From an uncultured Actinomycetota bacterium (GTDB lineage Bacteria > Actinomycetota > Actinomycetes > Propionibacteriales > Propionibacteriaceae): a stretch of DNA of 64,000 nucleotides. The stretch covers positions 3,707 through 67,706 of the forward strand of contig CAWEFW010000049.1 in NCBI GenBank assembly GCA_963808435.1, read 5' to 3'. Made by a program: the position numbers and the translations under genes. Below, in pieces: positions 4,226-14,717 of this stretch (position 1 is the stretch's first letter; each line of letters begins with the position of its first letter). Under the pieces are notes generated by a model. It saw only the letters and a program-made list of their open reading frames with translations, was not told where the DNA came from and ran no database searches.

Positions 4226-4266
4226 GCCGTGAGCCTAGGCCCGCAGGGAAGAGGACAGCAGTGTCC

Positions 4267-5169
4267 TCAGGGCAGCAGGACGAGCTTGCCGCGGAGGTGA
4301 CCCCCCTCGCTGATCCGGTGCGCCTCGGCCGCCCGGTCCAGCGGGAAGGTCTGCACCTTGACCACGAGCTTGTTCTGTTCCAGCAGCTCGGCCGCCTCGG
4401 CCAGCGCCTTCATCGGCTGGGATTCCTCGCCCCCACCGGTCACCCGGGCCCCCGCACCGGCCGCGCCGAAGTTGGCGATCGAGACGACCTGGCTGGGCTC
4501 CTCGACCAGACCGACCAGCTCATCGATCGGCGTCTTGCCGACCGCGTCCAGGACCGCGTCGACCGGGCCGCCAGTCACCGCGCGTACCCGGTCCTCCACC
4601 CCGGGCCCGTACAGCACAGGGATGGCGCCGATCTCGCGCAGGTAGTCCTGGTTGTCCGGTCCGGCGGAGGCGATTACCCGCACACCGCGGGCGATCGCGA
4701 ACTGGCTCGCCACCGCACCGACGCCTCCGGACCCACCGTCGATGAACAGGGTGTCGCCGGCCTTGACGTCGAGCAGCCGCAGGACCCGCTCGCTCGTCTC
4801 GCCGCTCACGCCGACCGCCGCGGCGACGGTCCAGTCGACCTGTGGCGGCTTGCGGGCCCAGGCGTCCAGCACGGCGTACTCCGCCTGGGTGTTATTGCCG
4901 TTACCGAGAACCTCGTCACCCACCGCCACCCCGGTGACGCCCTCGCCGACTTCGTCGACCGTGCCGGATGCGTCGAAGCCGAGGTAGGCCGGGGCCTCCA
5001 GCGGCTTGCCGCCGGCCATCATCCCGGACCGCAGCTTCCAGTCGAACGCGTTCACGCTCGCGGCCTTGACGGCGATCCGGATCTGACCGGGCCCGGCGTG
5101 CGGTTCGGGGGCCTCGGCCACCTCCAGCACCTCGGGGCCGCCATAGGACCTGTACTGCAATGCGCGCAT
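4267..5169 (-). CDS. NADP-dependent oxidoreductase (MDR/quinone-oxidoreductase-like)
   Basis: 'YGGPEVLEV..PEPHAGPGQIRIAVKAASVN' and 'GGSGGVG'; GAGGAGG RBS upstream. Confidence 0.9.
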   Translation of the reverse strand: MRALQYRSYGGPEVLEVAEAPEPHAGPGQIRIAVKAASVNAFDWKLRSGMMAGGKPLEAPAYLGFDASGTVDEVGEGVTGVAVGDEVLGNGNNTQAEYAVLDAWARKPPQVDWTVAAAVGVSGETSERVLRLLDVKAGDTLFIDGGSGGVGAVASQFAIARGVRVIASAGPDNQDYLREIGAIPVLYGPGVEDRVRAVTGGPVDAVLDAVGKTPIDELVGLVEEPSQVVSIANFGAAGAGARVTGGGEESQPMKALAEAAELLEQNKLVVKVQTFPLDRAAEAHRISEGGHLRGKLVLLP

Positions 5170-5187
5170 CGGACTCCTCCTCAGATC

Positions 5188-7032
5188 TCAGCTGACCTTG
5201 GCCGGCTGGCTGGTCGACAGGGCCGCCACGAACGCCTCCTGCGGCACCTCGACCCGACCGACCATCTTCATCCGCTTCTTGCCTTCCTTCTGCTTCTCCA
5301 GCAGCTTGCGCTTACGCGTGATGTCACCGCCGTAGCACTTGGCCAGCACATCCTTGCGCATCGCCCGGATGGTCTCCCGGGCGATCACCCGAGCCCCGAT
5401 GGCGGCCTGGATCGGCACCTCGAACTGCTGCCGCGGGATCAGCTCCTTGAGCTTGGCCGTCATCTGCACCCCGTACGCGTACGCCTTGTCCTTGTGGACG
5501 ATCGCGGAGAAGGCGTCGACCGGCTCACCGTGCAGCAGAATGTCCACCTTGACCAAGTCGCTGGGCTCCTCGCCGTGGGGCTCGTAGTCCAGGCTGGCGT
5601 AGCCCTTGGTCCGGGACTTGAGGGCGTCGAAGAAGTCGAACACGATCTCGGCCAGCGGCAGCGTGTAGCGGATCTCCACCCGGTCGGCCGACAGGTAGTC
5701 CATCCCGTGCTGGACGCCGCGACGGCTCTGGCACAGCTCGAGGATGGTTCCGATGTAGTCGGTGGGGCTGAGGATGGTCGCCCGCACCACCGGCTCGTAG
5801 ACCGAGGCGATCTTGCCGCTGGTCGGGTACTCCGACGGGTTGGTGACGATCACCTCCTCCCCGCTCTCCAGTTCAACGCGGTAGACCACGTTGGGGGCGG
5901 TCGAGATCAGGTCGAGGTTGAACTCCCGTTCCAGCCGCTCCCGAACGATCTCCATGTGCAACAGGCCCAGGAAGCCGATCCGGAAGCCGAACCCCAGCGC
6001 GCCGGAGGTCTCCGGCTCGTACGACAGCGCCGCGTCGTTGAGCTGCAGCTTGTCGAGGGCCTCGCGCAGCTCGGGGTAGTCGGCGCCGTCGATCGGGTAA
6101 AGCCCGGCGTACACCATCGGGTTGGGGTGTCGGTAGCCGCCGAGGCTGGTCTGCGCCGGGCGGGCCAGCGAGGTGACGGTGTCGCCGACCCGCGACTGGC
6201 GCACCTCCTTCACGCCGGTGATCAGGTAGCCGACCTCGCCCACGCCCAGGGCGTCGGTGCGCATCGGCTCGGGCGAGATGACCCCGACCTCGAGGGTCTC
6301 GTGTGCCGCCTTCGTCGACATCATCAACACCCGCTCACGGTGGGACAGCCGGCCGTCGACCACCCGGACGTACGTGACCACGCCACGGTAGGTGTCGTAG
6401 ACCGAGTCGAAGATCAGCGCCCGAGCCGGAGCGTCGGCGTCCCCGACGGGCGCCGGGATCTGTCGGACGATCTCGTCCAGCAGCTCGGCCACCCCCTCGC
6501 CGGTCTTCGCCGACACCCGGAGCACGTCGGACGGGTCGCCGCCGATGATCCCGGCCAGCTCGGCGGCGTACTTCTCCGGCTGGGCGCCCGGCAGGTCGAT
6601 CTTGTTCAGCACCGGGATGATGAGCAGGTTTGCGTCCAGGGCGAGGTAGAGGTTGGCCAGGGTCTGGGCCTCGATCCCCTGGGCCGCGTCCACCAGCAGC
6701 ACTGCACCCTCGCAGGCGGCCAACGAGCGGGACACCTCGTAGGTGAAGTCCACGTGTCCGGGGGTGTCGATCATGTTCAGCACGTACGCCGTGTCGGCGA
6801 CGGCCCAGGGCATCCGGACAGCCTGCGACTTGATGGTGATGCCGCGCTCGCGCTCGATGTCCATCCGGTCCAGGTACTGGGCGCGCATCGCCCGCCCCTC
6901 GACCACCCCGGTCAGCTGCAGCATCCGGTCGGCCAGCGTCGACTTGCCGTGGTCGATGTGGGCGATGATGCAGAAGTTGCGCAGGATCGCCGGGTCGGTA
7001 CGGCCGGCCGGCGGTACGGACGGGGCAGTCAT
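5188..7032 (-). CDS. lepA: Translation elongation factor 4 (LepA)
   Basis: '[19 protein letters not shown]', 'DTPGHVDF', C-terminal '[25 protein letters not shown]'; start set at ATG 7032. Confidence 0.98.
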
Positions 7033-7244
7033 GAAGTTGGTCCAGTTCGATTGAGGGCCAGGAGCGCAGACAAGCGAGTTTACTGGGCAGGCTCTTTCGT
7101 CCACCGAACGCGAGGCGTGAGGCCAGACTTGAGCCACGTGTGCGCTCGCTGGTACCGTGGGCGGTCGCGTCTACGGGCCGGGGACAAACCCGATCCGGAC
7201 GTGAACCCAAAAGAGCACTACACCCAGCGATCGAGGCGCGCCCA

Positions 7245-7505
7245 GTGGCAAACATCAAGTCCCAGATCAAGCGGATCAAGACCAACGAGACCGCTCGTCA
7301 GCGCAACAAGGCGACGAAGTCGGCTCTGCGTACGTCGATCCGCCGGTTCCGGGAGGCCGCCGACGCCGGCGACACCGCCAAGGCCACCGAGCTGGCCCAG
7401 GTGGCCACCCGTGCGCTGGACAAGGCCGTCTCCAAGGGTGTCATCCACAAGAACCAGGCGGCCAACCGCAAGTCGGCGATCGCCTCCAAAGCTGCGAGTA
7501 TCTGA
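7245..7505 (+). CDS. rpsT: 30S ribosomal protein S20
   Basis: '[26 protein letters not shown]...[13 protein letters not shown]'; GTG start at 7245. Confidence 0.98.
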
Positions 7506-7507
7506 TT

Positions 7508-7524
7508 GCGCCGCTCCGCGGCGC
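7508..7524. terminator. GC-rich hairpin right after the rpsT stop (possible terminator)
   Basis: GCGCCGC-TCC-GCGGCGC perfect 7-bp stem; no U-tract. Confidence 0.35.
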
Positions 7525-7684
7525 GAGGTTCGACGCTCCCGATCGCTCGGCCTTCCTCCCGCGCTCGCGAACGAAAAGCGTGTTCGCTCGCTGAGTCGTC
7601 CAGACCGAGCGGTCCGCGGCGAACCTGATCTGGCACACGGGACGGGATCGGTCTCCGCTCCGCGCTTGACTCCTCGCTAGACCG

Positions 7685-8656
7685 CTAGCCGCGGCGGGCG
7701 CGGGAAACCGTCAGCACCATCCGTTCCAGAGCGAACGACGCGTCGTCGGCCGCTCCTTTCACCTCGGCATCGGCGACCGCCACCGCCTGCAGCGCGTGCG
7801 CCAGGCCGGCCGCATCCCAACCCCGGGCCTGGGCCCGCATGCTCTTCAGCTTCCACGGCGGCACCCCCACCTCCCGAGCCAGGTCCGCCTCCCGCAGACC
7901 TCCCCCGGCGGTGACCAGCTTGCCCAACCCGCGTACGCCGGCGGCCAGGGCACTGGTGACCAGGACCGGCGCGACCCCGGTCGACAGGGCCCAGCGCAGC
8001 TGCTCCATGGCCAGCCCGGTCCGGCCGGCCAGGGCCGCGTCGGCCACCGCGAAGCTGGTCACCTCCGAGCGTCCGGCGAAGTAGCGACGGACCTGGTCCG
8101 CGGTCAGCTGGCCGCCCTCGCTGTCCGCCACCAGCTGCCGCACCGCCGCCGCCAGGGCGCGCAGGTCGTGGCCGACGGCGTCGACGAGGACCTGGGCCGC
8201 ACCGGGCTCCATCGGAGTATCCAGCCGTTTGGCCTCGGCCGAGACGAACTGCGGCAGCTCCCACGCCTTGACCGCCGGGCAGTCCACAACCGTCGCGCCC
8301 GCCGCCTTGACCTTGTCCAGCAGCGCCTTGCCCTTAGGCCCCCCGCCGTGCACCAGGACCAGGGCCACGTCCGCCAGCGGCGCCGTGGCCAGCGCGGTGA
8401 TGTCGGGCTGCAGCTCGGTGGGCAGGGAGGCGAGATCGGTGACCACCGCAGCCCGGCGCGCGGAGAACAACGACGGGTTGGTGATCTCGGCCAGCTTTCC
8501 GCGGTCCAGCCGGACCGCCTCGGTCTCGGTGACCTCGGCCTCCGGTGCCTCCTCGCGGATCTGCTGCCGGATCGCCTCCACCGCGCGGTCCGCCAGCAGC
8601 GCCTCGGGTCCGCTGACCAGGGTGACCCGGCCGAACGGGGATCCACGTGCCGCCAT
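7685..8656 (-). CDS. holA: DNA polymerase III subunit delta
   Basis: 'VTLVSGPEALLADRAV...LVHGGGPKGK...GHDLRALAAAVRQL..D...F.VADAAL'; context between comEC and rpsT. Confidence 0.93.
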   Translation of the reverse strand: MAARGSPFGRVTLVSGPEALLADRAVEAIRQQIREEAPEAEVTETEAVRLDRGKLAEITNPSLFSARRAAVVTDLASLPTELQPDITALATAPLADVALVLVHGGGPKGKALLDKVKAAGATVVDCPAVKAWELPQFVSAEAKRLDTPMEPGAAQVLVDAVGHDLRALAAAVRQLVADSEGGQLTADQVRRYFAGRSEVTSFAVADAALAGRTGLAMEQLRWALSTGVAPVLVTSALAAGVRGLGKLVTAGGGLREADLAREVGVPPWKLKSMRAQARGWDAAGLAHALQAVAVADAEVKGAADDASFALERMVLTVSRARRG

Positions 8657-8771
8657 GCCCGCCAGCATGCCAGCGCCCGCCGACACCCGGGGCGGCGCGT
8701 GCGGGGTCGGGATCTGGGGGCGAGAGTTGGTATACATGTGCCAGGGGCAGAAATCCTCGAAAGGGGCGACA

Positions 8772-9971
8772 GTGGCTGGCACACTCCGCACCTGGGTCCA
8801 GGGCTACGTTCGCGCGCACCGTTCCCACCCTGCCCCGCCGAACTTCAAGCCTCCCGTCAAGCTGCGCCGGCTGCGCCGCTCCCCGGAGGCCGACCTCGGC
8901 CAGAGGCTGGCCAGCGAGTCGCAGGTACTGCAGCGGTTGGTCGCGGTCCAGCCCCACACCATCGCCGTGGTGCTGCCCAGCGACCAACCACCGCAGATCA
9001 AGCGGCCTGGCGAGCAGCTGCGGCCCAGCCTGCTTTCGGGACGCAAGCCGAGCTATGTCGTAGTGATCAGCACGGCGGTAACCCGGCTTGACGTGACCAT
9101 GCGTGACCTGGCGACCCTGGACGAGAACATCCCGCTGGTCAAGATCAGGGTCGGAGTGCAGGTGAACGACCATGACGGGTATGCCGCCCTGATGGCCGCC
9201 GCACAGGTCAATCACACGGACCTCGACGGTTACCTCATCGAGCGCGTGAAGCGTGAGCTCGACGAGAAGGTCCGGCGGGCAGTCAAATGGAACGGAGCGA
9301 CCAACCTGAGGAGCAAGGCGCTGGACGAAATCCTGACCGGCGACGCGCTTCCGCACTCCTTCGCCGACGGAATCCTGGTTCAGCGGGGCGTCACCGTGCT
9401 GGAGACCGTCTGGCCAGACCCGGCCTCCGGCTCGCCACATTCCGCGCCGGTCTCCCCCGACGCGGTGTTCCGTCGTCCGGAGAGCGAGTGGCCCACCGAC
9501 TCCCCGCAGTCGGCACTGAACCTGACCAGCGACGCCCATCTGCGTGAAGTCTGGAACCACAACGCCGAGCTCGGGCTCCTCGGCATCGCCGGGGCCCAGG
9601 ACGGTGGCGGTAGTACCACGGTCATCGCCGTGCCGACGCGCGAGCCCGCAACACACGAGGAGACCCAGCTCCGCGAGGCGTTCGGCGCCTATTACCAGAA
9701 CCGGCGGGTTCGGCTGGTGTCCGCGGTCGCCGACACCTATGACGAGATCGTCCGCGCCTGGTTCAAGAAGGTGGACAGCTGGCCCCGCCGCCTGGTCGCG
9801 GTCACCGGGGCGGACACCAGCACGGTGCTGCGGATCCACGTCGACCAGAGCCGGCTGTCCGCCGACGAACGCAGTGCCGGCGTCTGGGTCGGCCAAGAGT
9901 CGGACCGCGAGGCACTGCGGCTGTTACTGCCGTACCGACGGATCGAGTTCGTCTCCGCGGACGCCGGCTGA
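8772..9971 (+). CDS. Hypothetical protein: SPFH/band-7-like region fused to a NusA-KH-like C-terminus
   Basis: Coding-like 3' part of ORF 8229-9971; GTG 8772 follows GAAAGGGG (ATG 8736 is an alternative). Domain calls rest on visual similarity only. Confidence 0.6.
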   Translation: MAGTLRTWVQGYVRAHRSHPAPPNFKPPVKLRRLRRSPEADLGQRLASESQVLQRLVAVQPHTIAVVLPSDQPPQIKRPGEQLRPSLLSGRKPSYVVVISTAVTRLDVTMRDLATLDENIPLVKIRVGVQVNDHDGYAALMAAAQVNHTDLDGYLIERVKRELDEKVRRAVKWNGATNLRSKALDEILTGDALPHSFADGILVQRGVTVLETVWPDPASGSPHSAPVSPDAVFRRPESEWPTDSPQSALNLTSDAHLREVWNHNAELGLLGIAGAQDGGGSTTVIAVPTREPATHEETQLREAFGAYYQNRRVRLVSAVADTYDEIVRAWFKKVDSWPRRLVAVTGADTSTVLRIHVDQSRLSADERSAGVWVGQESDREALRLLLPYRRIEFVSADAG

Positions 9972-9985
9972 GTCGGGAGGCGAAT

Positions 9986-11380
9986 GTGAGCCAGATCGAC
10001 TACGCCAACCGGGCGGCCCAACGGCCCGGGCTCGGGCCGCTGACCAGTTCGGAGAAGGAGCGGGAGACCGCGACCAAGAACCGGGCGTGGGCCACCGTGC
10101 CGTTATCGATCGCGCTGACCGTGCACCTGTTCTTCCTCCTTCAGTACTGGCTCCCCGAGACCGCCAACTTCCCGAACAGCCAGTGGTGGATGACCCAGCT
10201 CGCTCCGCTGGCCTCGCCCTGGCTGACCAGCCGGGGCGAGCCGCAGGTGCCGGCCCAGTACGAGTCGGGTCTGGCCCCAGCGGTGATGCTGGTCGCCGGG
10301 TTCTTCCTGGTCACGCTGTCCCGGAGCCCCAAGTGGTGGGCCCGGGTGGGCATCCTGGTGCCGGCCGCCGTGGGCGGCCTGGCCAGCCTGGGCATCCTGG
10401 TCCGGCTGCTGGCCACCGGCGGGAACCGCACCTCGACGCTGAGCGTGATGTTGCTCCTGCTCTGGATGGCCGCCGCCGCCTACGTCGCCGCCCAGGGGTT
10501 CCAGGACCGGCTCGGAACTCCGCCCCCGAAGAACTGGCGCAGTGGGCTGCCCGCCCTGGTCGGGTTGGCGCTGATGGGGCCGCTGCCCACCGCGGTCGGT
10601 CGGAGTCTCTTCGCGCCCGAGCTACGGGACATGGCGGTATCGCTCCAAGGGAACACCGTCGCTCTCCGGCTGTCGGCACTGTGGACCATCAGCACCCTCT
10701 GGCTGTATCTGAGCGGGTTGCTGGTCGGGGTGACCCTCTGGGTGCTGTACCGATGGTGGCCACTCCGTCGCGGAACCCAAGTCACCGGTCTGCTGATCGC
10801 CATGGCGATGATGCTGATCATCACCAGTGCCTTCGGCCTGACGGCGGCGCGGTTGGCCGGCGTCCGGACGACACAGATCGCCCTCGGCAGCCCCGCGGCC
10901 GAACCGGCGCTCGCGTGCGGGGCCTGGGCCCGACCCCAGAGCAGCCCGCGCGAGCCGATGCTCACCCTCGGGGTGACCGGCGCCGGATGTCGGACGGTGA
11001 CCATCTTCGAGGGTTACCGGCAGCTGTCCACCGGAACGGTGTCCGAGTCGCTGTCGCCGATCGAGGCGCGGACACCGGAGAACCAGCCGATCGCCACCGA
11101 GGAGGTCGGCGCGCTGTACGGGGACATCGTGGTGGTCGCCGCTACCGACCGGATGGACCGGGCTCCGACCAGCCTGCTGGGTCTGCGGATCACCGACGGC
11201 GCCGAGGTCTGGAAGGTGTCCTGCGACGACCTGACGGTTCGCTTCGCCATGGTCCCGGCCGGTGACGATCCCGCCAAGGGCCACATCACCGAGGAAGGCG
11301 AGAGCGTCCCGCAGGTGCTCGTCGGCTGCCCCGGCGTGTCCAGGTCGCTGGACCCGCAGACCGGACGGGACCGTACATAG
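9986..11380 (+). CDS. Hypothetical membrane protein (~7 TM helices plus a C-terminal soluble beta-rich domain)
   Basis: GGGAGG RBS before GTG; about seven hydrophobic segments; C-terminal 'LLGLRITDGAEVWKV' and 'SLDPQTG' resemble PQQ-type propeller repeats. Confidence 0.75.
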   Translation: MSQIDYANRAAQRPGLGPLTSSEKERETATKNRAWATVPLSIALTVHLFFLLQYWLPETANFPNSQWWMTQLAPLASPWLTSRGEPQVPAQYESGLAPAVMLVAGFFLVTLSRSPKWWARVGILVPAAVGGLASLGILVRLLATGGNRTSTLSVMLLLLWMAAAAYVAAQGFQDRLGTPPPKNWRSGLPALVGLALMGPLPTAVGRSLFAPELRDMAVSLQGNTVALRLSALWTISTLWLYLSGLLVGVTLWVLYRWWPLRRGTQVTGLLIAMAMMLIITSAFGLTAARLAGVRTTQIALGSPAAEPALACGAWARPQSSPREPMLTLGVTGAGCRTVTIFEGYRQLSTGTVSESLSPIEARTPENQPIATEEVGALYGDIVVVAATDRMDRAPTSLLGLRITDGAEVWKVSCDDLTVRFAMVPAGDDPAKGHITEEGESVPQVLVGCPGVSRSLDPQTGRDRT

Positions 11381-11559: not shown

Positions 11560-13917
11560 TCAGCGCTGGGTGACCGCGGCGAGCCGCCCGTCCCGCACGA
11601 CGACCGCAGCCGCACCCTGCTCGTCGGTGCGCAGCACGGTCATTCCGTACGACCGGGCCAGTTGGACCGTACGCGGGGCCGGGTGGCCGTAGTCGTTGTC
11701 CTGGCCGGCGCTGGCGATGGCCAGCCGGGCGCCGGTGGCCGCGAAAAAGGCCGGGTCCTGGCGGGCCGAGCCGTGGTGCGGGATCTTGAGCACGTCGGCC
11801 CGCAGGTCGGCGTGGCGCGCCAGGAGAGCGGCCTGGCCCGGGGGCTCGAGGTCGCCGGTGAGCAGGATGCGGACGCCCGGAGCGGTGACCAGAAGGACGA
11901 GGCTGCTGTCGTTCTCCTCCGGCGAGTCGGGAGCCGGCCCGGGTCGGGTCACCGGTCCGATCACCTCCAGCCCCAGCTCGCCCGCAGTGGCCCGTACGCC
12001 GACCCCGGGGCTGGCCACCGGGATCTGGCGCTGGGCCGCCGCCATCCGCACGTCGTGCACCTCAACCGGCGGTGAGGCGACGCCGCTGACCCAGATCTGC
12101 CCCACCGTCCGACCCCGCAGCACCCCGGCCAGACCGTCGACGTGGTCGGCGTGGAAGTGGGTCAGCACCAGGACCGGCACCGACGTCACGCGAAGCTGGT
12201 CGAGGCAGCGCCGCATCGGCACCGGGTCCGGTCCGGTGTCCACCACCACCGCGGCATGGGCGGCGGCCCGCACAACCAGCCCATCACCCTGACCGACGTC
12301 ACAGGCGATCAGCCGCCAGTCGCGCGGCGGCCAACCCGGCCGCGCGGGCGGTCCGAGCAGCCCCATGACCATCACGGCGGCCACCGCGAGCGCGAGCCAT
12401 GGCCGGGACAGCACCCAGCCCATGGCCAGACCGGCAACGAGGGCCCCCGTCGCCAGCCAGACCAGGGCCAACGGCGTAGTCGGCCATGGCCAGGCCGACC
12501 CCGGCAGCTGGGCCCCGTAGTGCGCCACCCAGATGATCGCCTGCGCGCACCAGGCGGCGCCGAAGCCGCACACCGCCGCCCCGGTCGCGGTGGCCAGCGA
12601 CAGACCGGCGGCGGCGAAGCCCAGCACCGTGGCCGGCCCGACGAAAGCTCCGGCCACCGCGTTGGCGAACAGGCCGGACAGGCTGACCTGCCCGGAGATG
12701 GCCGCGACCACCGGGAGCGTGGCCAGGTGGGCGGCCAGCGGTACCGCCACCGCGTCGGCGACCACCGCGGGCAGCCAACGGGTCATGACCGCCGACCAGC
12801 TCCTGGCCCACCCGATGATTCCGGCGCTGGCCAGCACGGAGAGGACGAACCCGACCGACCGGCTGAGGAAAGGGTCGAGCAGCAGCAGCGCGAGCATGGC
12901 CACGGCCAGGTTGCGCAGGCCGGCCCGCCGCGCGCCGGAGCCGAGGGCAGCCAGCGCGACCAGCCCCATCGCGGCGGCCCGCAGCACGCTGGGCTCGGTC
13001 CGGCAGAGCGCGACGAACGCCACTACCCCGAGCAGACCGAGCGCACGCAGGCCCCACCCGCGCACACCGAGCCAACGGGCGGTGGTGAGGACGAACGCGA
13101 GCAGCAGGGTGAGGTTGGCGCCCGACACGGCGGTCAGATGGGCCAGACCCGTCGCCGCGAACTCCGCCTCCAGCTCGACCGACAGAGCGGCCGTGTCGCC
13201 CACGACCAGCGCCGGCACCAGTGCCCGCGGCTCGGGGTCCCGCTCCGCGACCGAGGCTCGCAGCCCACCGCGCACCCGCTCGACCAGCCGCTCCGGCGGC
13301 GACGGCCCACTGGCCAGGACCGGCTCGGCCCGTGCCCGGACCACGGCGGCGACGTCCGACCCGCGGTCGCGCGGTGCCAGCTTCGCCAACGCGGTCACCT
13401 GGGTTCCGACCGGCAGCCGGGACCACGCGGCGGCCTGCTCGCCACCGGCCACCACCAGCACCGGGGCCCGGATCCGCCAGGTCCGGCCATCGCTGGTCAT
13501 CTGCCGCAGAGTGGCGCGGACAACCGCGTACCCGGCACGGCCGGCCTGTCCTGGCTTCAGTGACGGGTCGGTCCGGATCTCCAGCCGCACCGGAACCACC
13601 GCCCCGGACTGCGCCAGGTCGGAAACCGTCCCGCTGGCCAGCCGGTGGGTGTGCAGCAGCCCCGTGGCACTGAGCGCGACCAGGACCACGGCGGCCGCCG
13701 CCCACCAGGCCGAGCGGCGAACGGCCGCCCCCAGCCCAAGGCCGACCACGCCCAGCGCCAGGACCAGCAGCGCCGTGGCCGTGGCCCAGGTGCCCAGGAG
13801 GGCAGCGGCCCAGCCAGCCAAGGCGAGGGGGACCATCCGCAGGTCCCGGCCGCGACCCTCGCGAGCGCGCTGGCTGCTGCCGAGCCGCCCAGGGTCCGCT
13901 GTCGCCGCCTCGTTCAT
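11560..13917 (-). CDS. comEC: ComEC/Rec2 competence protein
   Basis: 'GLAHLTAVSGAN', 'EPSVLRAAAM', and MBL domain 'CDVGQGD...LTHFHADH...KIPHHGS'. Confidence 0.95.
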   Translation of the reverse strand: MNEAATADPGRLGSSQRAREGRGRDLRMVPLALAGWAAALLGTWATATALLVLALGVVGLGLGAAVRRSAWWAAAAVVLVALSATGLLHTHRLASGTVSDLAQSGAVVPVRLEIRTDPSLKPGQAGRAGYAVVRATLRQMTSDGRTWRIRAPVLVVAGGEQAAAWSRLPVGTQVTALAKLAPRDRGSDVAAVVRARAEPVLASGPSPPERLVERVRGGLRASVAERDPEPRALVPALVVGDTAALSVELEAEFAATGLAHLTAVSGANLTLLLAFVLTTARWLGVRGWGLRALGLLGVVAFVALCRTEPSVLRAAAMGLVALAALGSGARRAGLRNLAVAMLALLLLDPFLSRSVGFVLSVLASAGIIGWARSWSAVMTRWLPAVVADAVAVPLAAHLATLPVVAAISGQVSLSGLFANAVAGAFVGPATVLGFAAAGLSLATATGAAVCGFGAAWCAQAIIWVAHYGAQLPGSAWPWPTTPLALVWLATGALVAGLAMGWVLSRPWLALAVAAVMVMGLLGPPARPGWPPRDWRLIACDVGQGDGLVVRAAAHAAVVVDTGPDPVPMRRCLDQLRVTSVPVLVLTHFHADHVDGLAGVLRGRTVGQIWVSGVASPPVEVHDVRMAAAQRQIPVASPGVGVRATAGELGLEVIGPVTRPGPAPDSPEENDSSLVLLVTAPGVRILLTGDLEPPGQAALLARHADLRADVLKIPHHGSARQDPAFFAATGARLAIASAGQDNDYGHPAPRTVQLARSYGMTVLRTDEQGAAAVVVRDGRLAAVTQR

Positions 13918-14717
13918 ACCCGGACGTGCGGGGCGATCTGCGCGTACGTCTTCGGCCCGATGCCGTCGACCTGCTGCAGCTCGGTGACCACGGTGAACCG
14001 ACCGTGCTGGGTCCGCCAGGCGAGGATGGCCGCCGCCGTCACCGGTCCGACTCCGGGCAGCTGCTCCAGCTCCGATGCCGTGGCGCGGTTCAGGTCGACC
14101 GTGGCCGCTGCGCTGGGACCGGCCGACGACCCCGGTGGCGCCGACCCGTCCCGCACCTCACTGACCGGGTCGCGGGCGGTCCCGATCACGACCTGCTGGC
14201 CGTCGGTCAGCAGTTGAGCCAGGTTCAGCCGGCCTGACCGAGCCGCGCCGGTCACTCCGCCGGCCGCGTCCAGGGCGTCCTGCACCCGAGCGCCTTCGGC
14301 CAGCCGGACCAGCCCTGGCCGGCGGACCGCCCCGACCACGTGCACGACGATGTCCGGGCGGGCGCTCGCCGAGCTCGACGTCGTCCCCGAGGCCCCGACC
14401 TCCGGACGAGGCGCCGAGGCCGCGACCACCACGTCCGGCGCCGCGACGGCAACAGGTCGGGCCCGGAACAGGGCCCAGCCGGCGCCGAGCAGCCCGACCA
14501 GGACCAGCACCGTCACCACCGCGAGATGGACCCGCCCGAACGGCCGCGCCGGTGAACGCCCAGGATCGGCATCGAGGACGTCCACCGGCTGCTCAAGGTC
14601 GTCCTCGTCCGGCGGCAGACCGCGCGACCGGCGGGGCGCGGTGGCCCCGAGGACGTACTGCAACCGGTCCGCGACCAGCGCGCGGACCTCCGGGGGAGAC
14701 TCGACGAGGCGCCTCAT
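13914..14717 (-). CDS. comEA: ComEA DNA-binding competence protein
   Basis: TM segment, SLBB 'VHVVGAVRRPGLVRLAEGARVQDAL', HhH 'DLNRATASELEQLPGVGP'. Confidence 0.93.
   Translation of the reverse strand: MRRLVESPPEVRALVADRLQYVLGATAPRRSRGLPPDEDDLEQPVDVLDADPGRSPARPFGRVHLAVVTVLVLVGLLGAGWALFRARPVAVAAPDVVVAASAPRPEVGASGTTSSSASARPDIVVHVVGAVRRPGLVRLAEGARVQDALDAAGGVTGAARSGRLNLAQLLTDGQQVVIGTARDPVSEVRDGSAPPGSSAGPSAAATVDLNRATASELEQLPGVGPVTAAAILAWRTQHGRFTVVTELQQVDGIGPKTYAQIAPHVRV

Follow-up and report, generated by a model that had tools for sequence, protein, structure and literature searches.

A 64,000-nucleotide stretch of DNA from an uncultured actinobacterium of the family Propionibacteriaceae (contig CAWEFW010000049.1; hereafter, the window) raises the question of what might be done by a protein that appears to join a membrane-scaffold domain to an RNA-binding-like domain, and what its position between holA and comEC signifies. 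The gene in question, at 8772-9971 on the plus strand, was described in an initial annotation as an SPFH-like and NusA-KH-like fusion, and is referred to here as the SPFH-KH gene. We find that it is a genuine conserved gene whose product combines a divergent SPFH fold with a C-terminal tandem of KH-like fold, has no predicted transmembrane (TM) segment, and is encoded directly upstream of a membrane protein that occurs in the same genomes. The interpretation that we favor, with a probability of roughly 0.55, is that the protein is a TM-less SPFH scaffold docked on this dedicated seven-TM partner, with the KH-fold module serving as an accessory.

Long spurious open reading frames (ORFs) are numerous in the high-GC DNA of the window, and the SPFH-KH frame itself remains open upstream to 8229, over a stretch that is antisense to holA and shares the third-position phase of that gene. 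Both observations would suit an antisense or chance frame, and against them stand the signatures of coding and conservation. The frame at 8772-9971 (+) translates without a stop into 399 amino acids in DNA of 70% GC, and its GC content by codon position (~0.70/0.45/0.85 over both 8772-9971 and 9986-11380) has the pattern of plus-strand genes. This coding signature begins at ~8770, with third-position periodicity starting at 8772, and the frame changes again at ~9986 for the second gene. The GTG start codon at 8772 is preceded by a ribosome-binding site, GAAAGGGG, at 8759-8766 and aligns with the M/V-A-G-T start (MAGT or VAGT) of 38 homologues; the sole alternative start is an upstream ATG at 8736. 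A word-indexed search returned 52 full-length homologues of ~400 amino acids, down to 40% identity and with a conserved start, all of them unannotated, lacking any Pfam domain, and derived from soil metagenome-assembled genomes of Propionibacteriaceae. With an E limit of 1e-3, an exhaustive profile search gave 162 representative clusters. Both domains are, moreover, confidently folded in a predicted structure. On the conservation data we rejected the spurious-ORF explanation, to which we assign next to no probability; the conserved start, the switch in coding GC, and the homologues therefore confirm the gene and its coordinates. The arrangement given in the initial annotation, with the gene on the strand opposite to comEC and holA and two plus-strand genes between them, is likewise correct, the flanking genes being identified by matches to PF03772 and TIGR01128, respectively, and the peptide strings that it quoted are all present in the 399-amino acid translation.

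An AlphaFold2 model of the SPFH-KH protein (mean predicted local distance difference test [pLDDT] score of 73.7) contains two folded domains and disordered segments at residues 1-43 and 218-247. Scores by block are ~80-90 for residues 54-216, 66-91 for residues 251-399, and below 50 for the two disordered segments. Residues 1-45 (8772-8906, +) constitute an N-terminal tail that is rich in proline and basic in charge (10 K/R versus 2 D/E) and is predicted to be disordered apart from a short helix at residues 6-15; this tail is kept in the close family only and is absent from distant relatives. There follow a divergent SPFH/band-7 domain (residues 46-216; 8907-9419, +) and a proline-rich linker (residues 217-250; 9420-9521, +) that is predicted to be disordered and is poorly conserved, with a mean pairwise identity of 25%.

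The SPFH assignment derives from comparison of the modeled fold with known structures. In a VIA-align structural search, residues 54-216 match prohibitin (PHB 9o9z_A) with Z 12.9 and a root-mean-square deviation (rmsd) of 2.5 over 149 aligned residues, flotillin with Z 11.9, and HflK/C with Z 11.8, and they also match erlin, QmcA, stomatin, and the shoulder of the vault protein MVP, so that the SPFH set as a whole spans Z 10-13. A Foldseek search against the PDB gives an SPFH match with E 2.5e-6 and returns the SPFH and NusA KH classes alike, while Band 7 proteins are also retrieved by a structural search of a viral library. Residues 54-216 are thus predicted to adopt the core alpha/beta fold of the SPFH family, as the initial annotation had proposed for the N-terminal part of the protein, and both of the folds that it named are assigned by structure search.

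The link at the level of sequence is more remote. Nine of the 34 members of a broadened family alignment match PF01145 weakly (E up to 0.1), and one homologue (P0162) reaches 24.6 bits on this model, against a cut-off of 23.6, while matching the family profile with E 1.2e-10. The connection of the SPFH-KH protein to Band_7 is in this sense a transitive one, made via its homologues. Searches of Pfam, NCBIfam, and PADLOC found no model covering either this protein or its partner; phmmer and profile searches against PDB sequences returned only noise, and a protein atlas offered low-score leads, one of which is a Band_7 cluster at 0.75. Most members of the SPFH family carry an N-terminal membrane anchor, although this feature is not universal. 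No such TM helix or hairpin is evident in the SPFH-KH protein, for which the maximum hydropathy over 19 residues is 1.11 and no TM segment is predicted; it also contains zero cysteines. Nor does a C-terminal coiled coil follow the SPFH domain, its place being taken by the disordered proline-rich linker at residues 217-250. According to PMC12624060, the rings formed by canonical SPFH proteins are built by the coiled-coil region.

The C-terminal module is a predicted tandem of two KH-like units. In the same structural search, residues 253-399 match NusA KH1-KH2 from Mycobacterium tuberculosis (1k0r, Z 10.1), Escherichia coli (5lm9, Z 10.0), and Thermotoga maritima (1hh2, Z 10.0), each over ~125 residues with an rmsd of 3.0-3.3. 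The M. tuberculosis NusA-RNA complex 2asb is also matched (Z 9.6; Foldseek E 3e-4), as is an archaeal NusA (Z 8.3), whereas matches to single units, such as the S3 KH, Der KH-like, EscJ, and CzcD C-terminal domains, have Z of 7 or less. The first half (residues 251-319; 9522-9728, +), matched to NusA KH1, has a modeled alpha-beta-beta-alpha-beta order, which is one helix short of the type II KH topology. The second half (residues 320-399 plus the stop codon; 9729-9971, +), matched to NusA KH2, has the order alpha-beta-beta-alpha-alpha-beta (H323-335, E341-346, E352-357, H364-368, H376-385, and E390-395) and would therefore possess the full type II topology.

The signature that defines nucleic-acid binding in KH domains is the GxxG loop, and a search for it was among the checks that the initial annotation had suggested. 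The expected loop is found in neither half. It is missing from the first, which instead carries the invariant motifs LDLT.DA..R.W and L.GIAGA, and the corresponding position of the second half reads VG[RQ]x[SA]DR, in which G374 and R379 are invariant and residue 377 is S or A throughout the close family. Among distant relatives and in the wider family, this position reads P/G-x-x-S/A/P, and the close-family motif is lost. At E up to 0.1, none of 34 family members matches a KH Pfam family, and the NusA model TIGR01953 does not match the SPFH-KH gene, finding in the genome only the genuine nusA on contig C22. Alignment of the C-terminal domain with NusA KH by hhalign gives E 0.12-0.45 and a probability below 1%, with a colinear match over 117 columns at E 0.12; given the low diversity of the NusA alignment (Neff 1.6), this is a weak negative. 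The resemblance of the C-terminal ~125 residues to NusA KH1-KH2, which the initial annotation had drawn from alignments made by hand, therefore stands as a similarity of fold (Z ~10) and not as one of sequence or profile; the hand alignments are reproduced by hhalign at low stringency, without reaching significance (E 0.12). The KH assignment is one of predicted fold.

Despite this divergence from known KH families, the tandem is under strong purifying selection. Mean pairwise identity is 63% for the first KH-like half, which is the best-conserved part of the protein, and 56% for the second, compared with 55% for the SPFH domain. The module is slightly acidic, with 18 K/R versus 21 D/E. We also observed stand-alone proteins composed of the tandem (P0183, P0198, and P0202), which are metagenomic, apparently complete, and 151-163 amino acids long, match no Pfam family, and carry an extra QAAQGSGRG insert. 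Conservation of the tandem, together with these stand-alone copies, indicates that it is a genuine sequence family in its own right, one that has not been described. Because the coiled-coil region has been lost in the close family and GxxG is absent, a role in protein-protein contact or self-assembly appears modestly more likely for the tandem than classical RNA binding.

Fifteen nucleotides after the SPFH-KH gene begins the gene at 9986-11380 (+), which encodes a membrane protein of 464 amino acids and has no Pfam or NCBIfam match. Its AlphaFold2 model (pLDDT 85) contains a helical membrane region followed by a beta domain that forms the C-terminal part of the protein (residues 307-464). This domain might comprise approximately three propeller blades (2yms fragment, Z 9.4; BamB, Z 8.5; Foldseek E ~4e-3), with scores that lie near background. 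Family-wide hydropathy and positive-inside counts predict seven TM helices and favor an N-terminus inside and a C-terminus outside the cell. Four cysteines (311, 335, 413, and 448) are invariant and fit an extracytoplasmic beta domain, probably located outside the cell. We also considered an NfeD-type partner and found no support for it: Pfam and NCBIfam give no match, the modeled beta domain appears propeller-like, and no NfeD-type match is present among the listed structural hits.

The two genes form an operon and are tightly linked. Across the 18 kb inspected in each of 12 genus genomes, the SPFH gene is in every case directly followed by the partner gene in the same order, and the pair is always flanked by holA and comEC when the latter falls in range. 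The connection with the downstream membrane gene, to which the initial annotation had drawn attention, is also seen in gene content: of 32 genus genomes in which both were sought, 23 carry the two together, 9 carry neither, and none is discordant. Moreover, two natural proteins, P0113 (695 amino acids) and P0127 (681 amino acids), are in-frame fusions of an SPFH domain to a partner homologue that is 37-38% identical to the window partner over its full length, and both are devoid of the KH-like module. The geometry of these fusions puts the SPFH domain and the partner N-terminus on one side of the membrane, which would be the cytoplasm. Separately, we noted four loci in which the SPFH and KH-like halves occupy adjacent but different frames (G001:C3:1204465-1205668, G004:C17:56048-57075, G006:C162:2352-3431, and G020:C158:5315-6394); these copies may be assembly frameshifts or genuinely split genes.

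These observations are consistent with a mechanism in which the SPFH-KH protein acts as a cytoplasmic SPFH scaffold that has no membrane anchor of its own and forms a complex with the product of the membrane-protein gene directly downstream. As suggested by the genetic evidence, its SPFH domain would dock on the cytoplasmic face of the seven-TM partner, whose small, cysteine-bearing, propeller-like domain is probably outside the cell. The KH1-KH2-fold tandem would then be an accessory cytoplasmic module, perhaps with an assembly role that replaces the lost coiled coil. The pair might constitute a lineage-specific unit for membrane organization or envelope surveillance, and it is in this sense that we infer a scaffold or stress function.

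Several points weigh against this proposal. Both structural models were built on shallow alignments, of 38 sequences for the SPFH-KH protein and 34 for the partner, and the SPFH-KH protein itself goes undetected by Pfam Band_7 (PF01145) even when E is allowed to reach 10. The propeller assignment of the partner is weak (Z 8.5-9.4), and its proposed topology derives from hydropathy and positive-inside counts. In addition, the KH-like module is far from universal. Clear SPFH domains are accompanied by the tandem in 12 of 35 genus genomes and occur without it in another 12, with weak SPFH fragments in 2 and nothing in the remaining 9, such that about half of the genus members with an SPFH gene are without the module. 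In two of these genomes (G017 and G070), ~100-150 bp separate the SPFH domain from the partner gene, which leaves no room for a tandem. Any role of the tandem must therefore be dispensable or lineage-specific.

The same architecture might instead serve as a membrane-tethered nucleic-acid binder, in which the tandem binds single-stranded RNA or DNA (ssRNA or ssDNA) and the SPFH domain and partner hold the nucleic acid at the membrane; in one version of this model, the protein receives ssDNA imported by the neighboring ComEC channel. Such a function, which we regard as possible but improbable, would account for the match of the tandem to NusA KH1-KH2, including the RNA complex 2asb, for the full type II topology of the second half, where the GxxG position has the invariant residues G374 and R379, for the strong conservation of the module, and for the placement of the gene beside comEC and comEA. 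It is more difficult to reconcile with a first half lacking GxxG and a second half whose G-x-x-S/A sequence is lost in distant relatives, with the lack of any match to KH Pfam families or the NusA model and a profile-profile E of 0.12 to NusA KH, with the slightly acidic character of the module, and with the existence of natural variants from which it is missing. The idea that the protein localizes RNA to the membrane, advanced in the initial annotation, is if anything weakened, because the KH assignment is one of modeled fold and GxxG is missing or degenerate. A more elaborate possibility is that a receptor-like seven-TM protein, its propeller-like domain facing outward, is coupled at its cytoplasmic side to an SPFH scaffold with a functional divergent KH tandem of the NusA type, and that together they capture or regulate ssRNA or imported ssDNA at specific membrane sites. 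This seems to us a long shot; if true, it would tie membrane microdomains directly and physically to the handling of nucleic acids in bacteria, and would define a new SPFH assembly class.

The argument from proximity to comEC depends on the nature of the holA-comEC junction. These two genes are commonly adjacent, as the initial annotation stated, and are separated by less than 300 bp on the same strand in ~20 of 44 Propionibacteriaceae genomes outside the genus; in the rest they are 1.2-20 kb apart. Five genus members without the cassette include one in which holA and comEC are 156 bp apart and four with other inserts of 7-14 kb. Sites that are empty or differently filled identify the junction as a variable insertion site, and a functional link to ComEC was down-weighted on this ground. 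With unrelated inserts occupying the same position in other genomes, the proximity of the SPFH-KH cassette to comEC and comEA is probably incidental. The variability of the junction could also reflect a hot spot in which the two genes are a phage- or plasmid-defense module or another type of conflict cassette, given that the site is empty in ~20 of 44 genomes and is filled with 1.2-20 kb of other DNA in the remainder, that it is empty or otherwise filled within the genus when the cassette is missing, and that a homologue on a Kocuria rosea plasmid lies directly upstream of a HerA-like ATPase matching the PADLOC model mad8. We nevertheless consider a defense function distinctly unlikely. Neither window protein matches any PADLOC model, the window cassette includes no nuclease, ATPase, or other effector, and the cassette keeps one position throughout the genus, the pattern that vertical inheritance accompanied by losses would produce. 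Furthermore, no homologue of the SPFH-KH protein was detected in a phage collection, and a literature search did not find an established SPFH-based defense system.

The taxonomic range of the protein was surveyed in two draws of genomes. In the first, the close family was detected in 21 of 24 members of the window's genus and in 0 of 16 genomes belonging to other families of the order; the second gave 25 of 34 genus genomes and 0 of 266 genomes from 39 other genera of Propionibacteriaceae. Among the whole genomes searched, the close family is restricted to the window's own soil actinobacterial genus. Among the named matches to the partner gene are Friedmanniella luteola, Microlunatus lacustris, and Microlunatus capsulatus, which identify this genus as Microlunatus/Friedmanniella and show that cultured strains are included.

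Distant relatives are 450-500 amino acids in length and contain ~100 additional residues between the SPFH domain and the tandem, at the position of the canonical coiled coil, and this segment reads as helical. A profile of these relatives matched none of 400 sampled Actinomycetota genomes except the window's own, a metagenome scan with P0130 gave no match, and one further sequence came from a search for homologues that used P0162 as its seed. P0162 (WP_290467981.1; 490 amino acids), labeled by NCBI as an SPFH domain-containing protein, is the sole distant homologue with known context and the sole one derived from an isolate. It is encoded on the mobilizable K. rosea plasmid NZ_CP127858.1 (L084:6992-10869), where its gene runs 4 bp into the start of a downstream gene for an 802-amino acid DUF87/HerA-like ATPase that matches mad8 with E 6e-17. 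This SPFH-ATPase pair may be a separate system.

In the window, the locus is laid out as follows. The gene holA (TIGR01128, E 3.4e-51; PF21694) occupies 7685-8656 or 8668 on the minus strand, its start being read from the sequence, and a divergent intergenic region, delimited in the same way, extends from 8657 to 8771. Exactly two plus-strand genes, at 8772-9971 and 9986-11380, precede comEC (11560-13917, −; PF03772, E 6e-42, with Lactamase_B) and comEA (13914-14717, −; SLBB and HHH_3). No sigma-70 consensus promoter was found in 8657-8771, and no convincing terminator was found; within the 180-bp gap between the 3′ ends of the partner gene and comEC, the segment 11413-11523 contains no internal inverted repeat or terminator. 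At other loci of the genus (including L011:10871-12162 and L013:5741-7028), a stretch of ~1.2 kb carrying one extra gene lies between the partner gene and comEC; this gene is absent from the window. On the far side of holA, an ORF of 1139 amino acids at 4261-7680 (+) has no Pfam or NCBIfam match, and its homologues adjoin holA in 12 of 12 genus genomes examined, with 44-70% identity. Its product is a large uncharacterized conserved protein.

SPFH proteins occur throughout life, and how they select their clients is still debated. The system described here pairs a divergent SPFH protein, whose C-terminal module is undescribed, with a partner of a new type, and is restricted to one genus that harbors three natural versions, namely SPFH with the KH-like tandem, SPFH alone, and the SPFH-partner fusion. 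With a fixed single partner and these natural versions, client recognition by a TM-less SPFH domain becomes directly testable. The tandem, a family absent from Pfam with a predicted NusA-like KH fold and without GxxG, likewise offers a test of nucleic-acid binding versus reuse of the fold for protein contacts. Since the close family occurs in a single genus of soil actinobacteria, the practical reach of these tests is limited. A full-text literature search for SPFH together with a KH domain revealed no paper describing such a protein, and the architecture, which the initial annotation had not recognized, appears to be undescribed.

Several known systems share some features with the protein. 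With canonical SPFH proteins (prohibitin, flotillin, HflK/C, stomatin, and QmcA; PF01145), of which the source genome encodes three ordinary Band_7 paralogues elsewhere, it is predicted to share the core alpha/beta fold; unlike them, it has no N-terminal TM segment or hairpin, a disordered linker replaces the coiled coil that builds their rings and cages, and its partner appears to be neither NfeD nor FtsH. Like NusA KH1-KH2 (1k0r, 2asb, 5lm9, and 1hh2), it would contain two consecutive KH-type units, packed as they are in NusA, but it has neither the NusA N-terminal domain nor the S1 domain, and no significant sequence or profile similarity to NusA. The Kocuria protein P0162 is a true homologue with the same order of modules, SPFH followed by the C-terminal tandem; it differs in carrying ~100 residues between the domains, in having no basic N-terminal tail, and in being followed by the gene for a DUF87/HerA-like ATPase and not by that for a seven-TM partner.

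The closest working analogy is provided by YdjI/SamI of Bacillus subtilis, which is presented in PMC8581546 and PMC13713150 as a TM-less SPFH protein that is recruited by the operon-encoded membrane proteins YdjG/YdjH (SamG/SamH). The SPFH-KH protein similarly has no TM anchor and is co-encoded with an integral membrane protein, which by analogy would recruit it. The two systems differ in that YdjI has no KH-like tandem and no detected sequence similarity to the SPFH-KH protein, and in that the two-gene plus-strand cassette, the portion of the genome searched for PspA, contains no PspA gene. In place of YdjG/H, the SPFH-KH protein would have a single seven-TM partner with a propeller-like domain.

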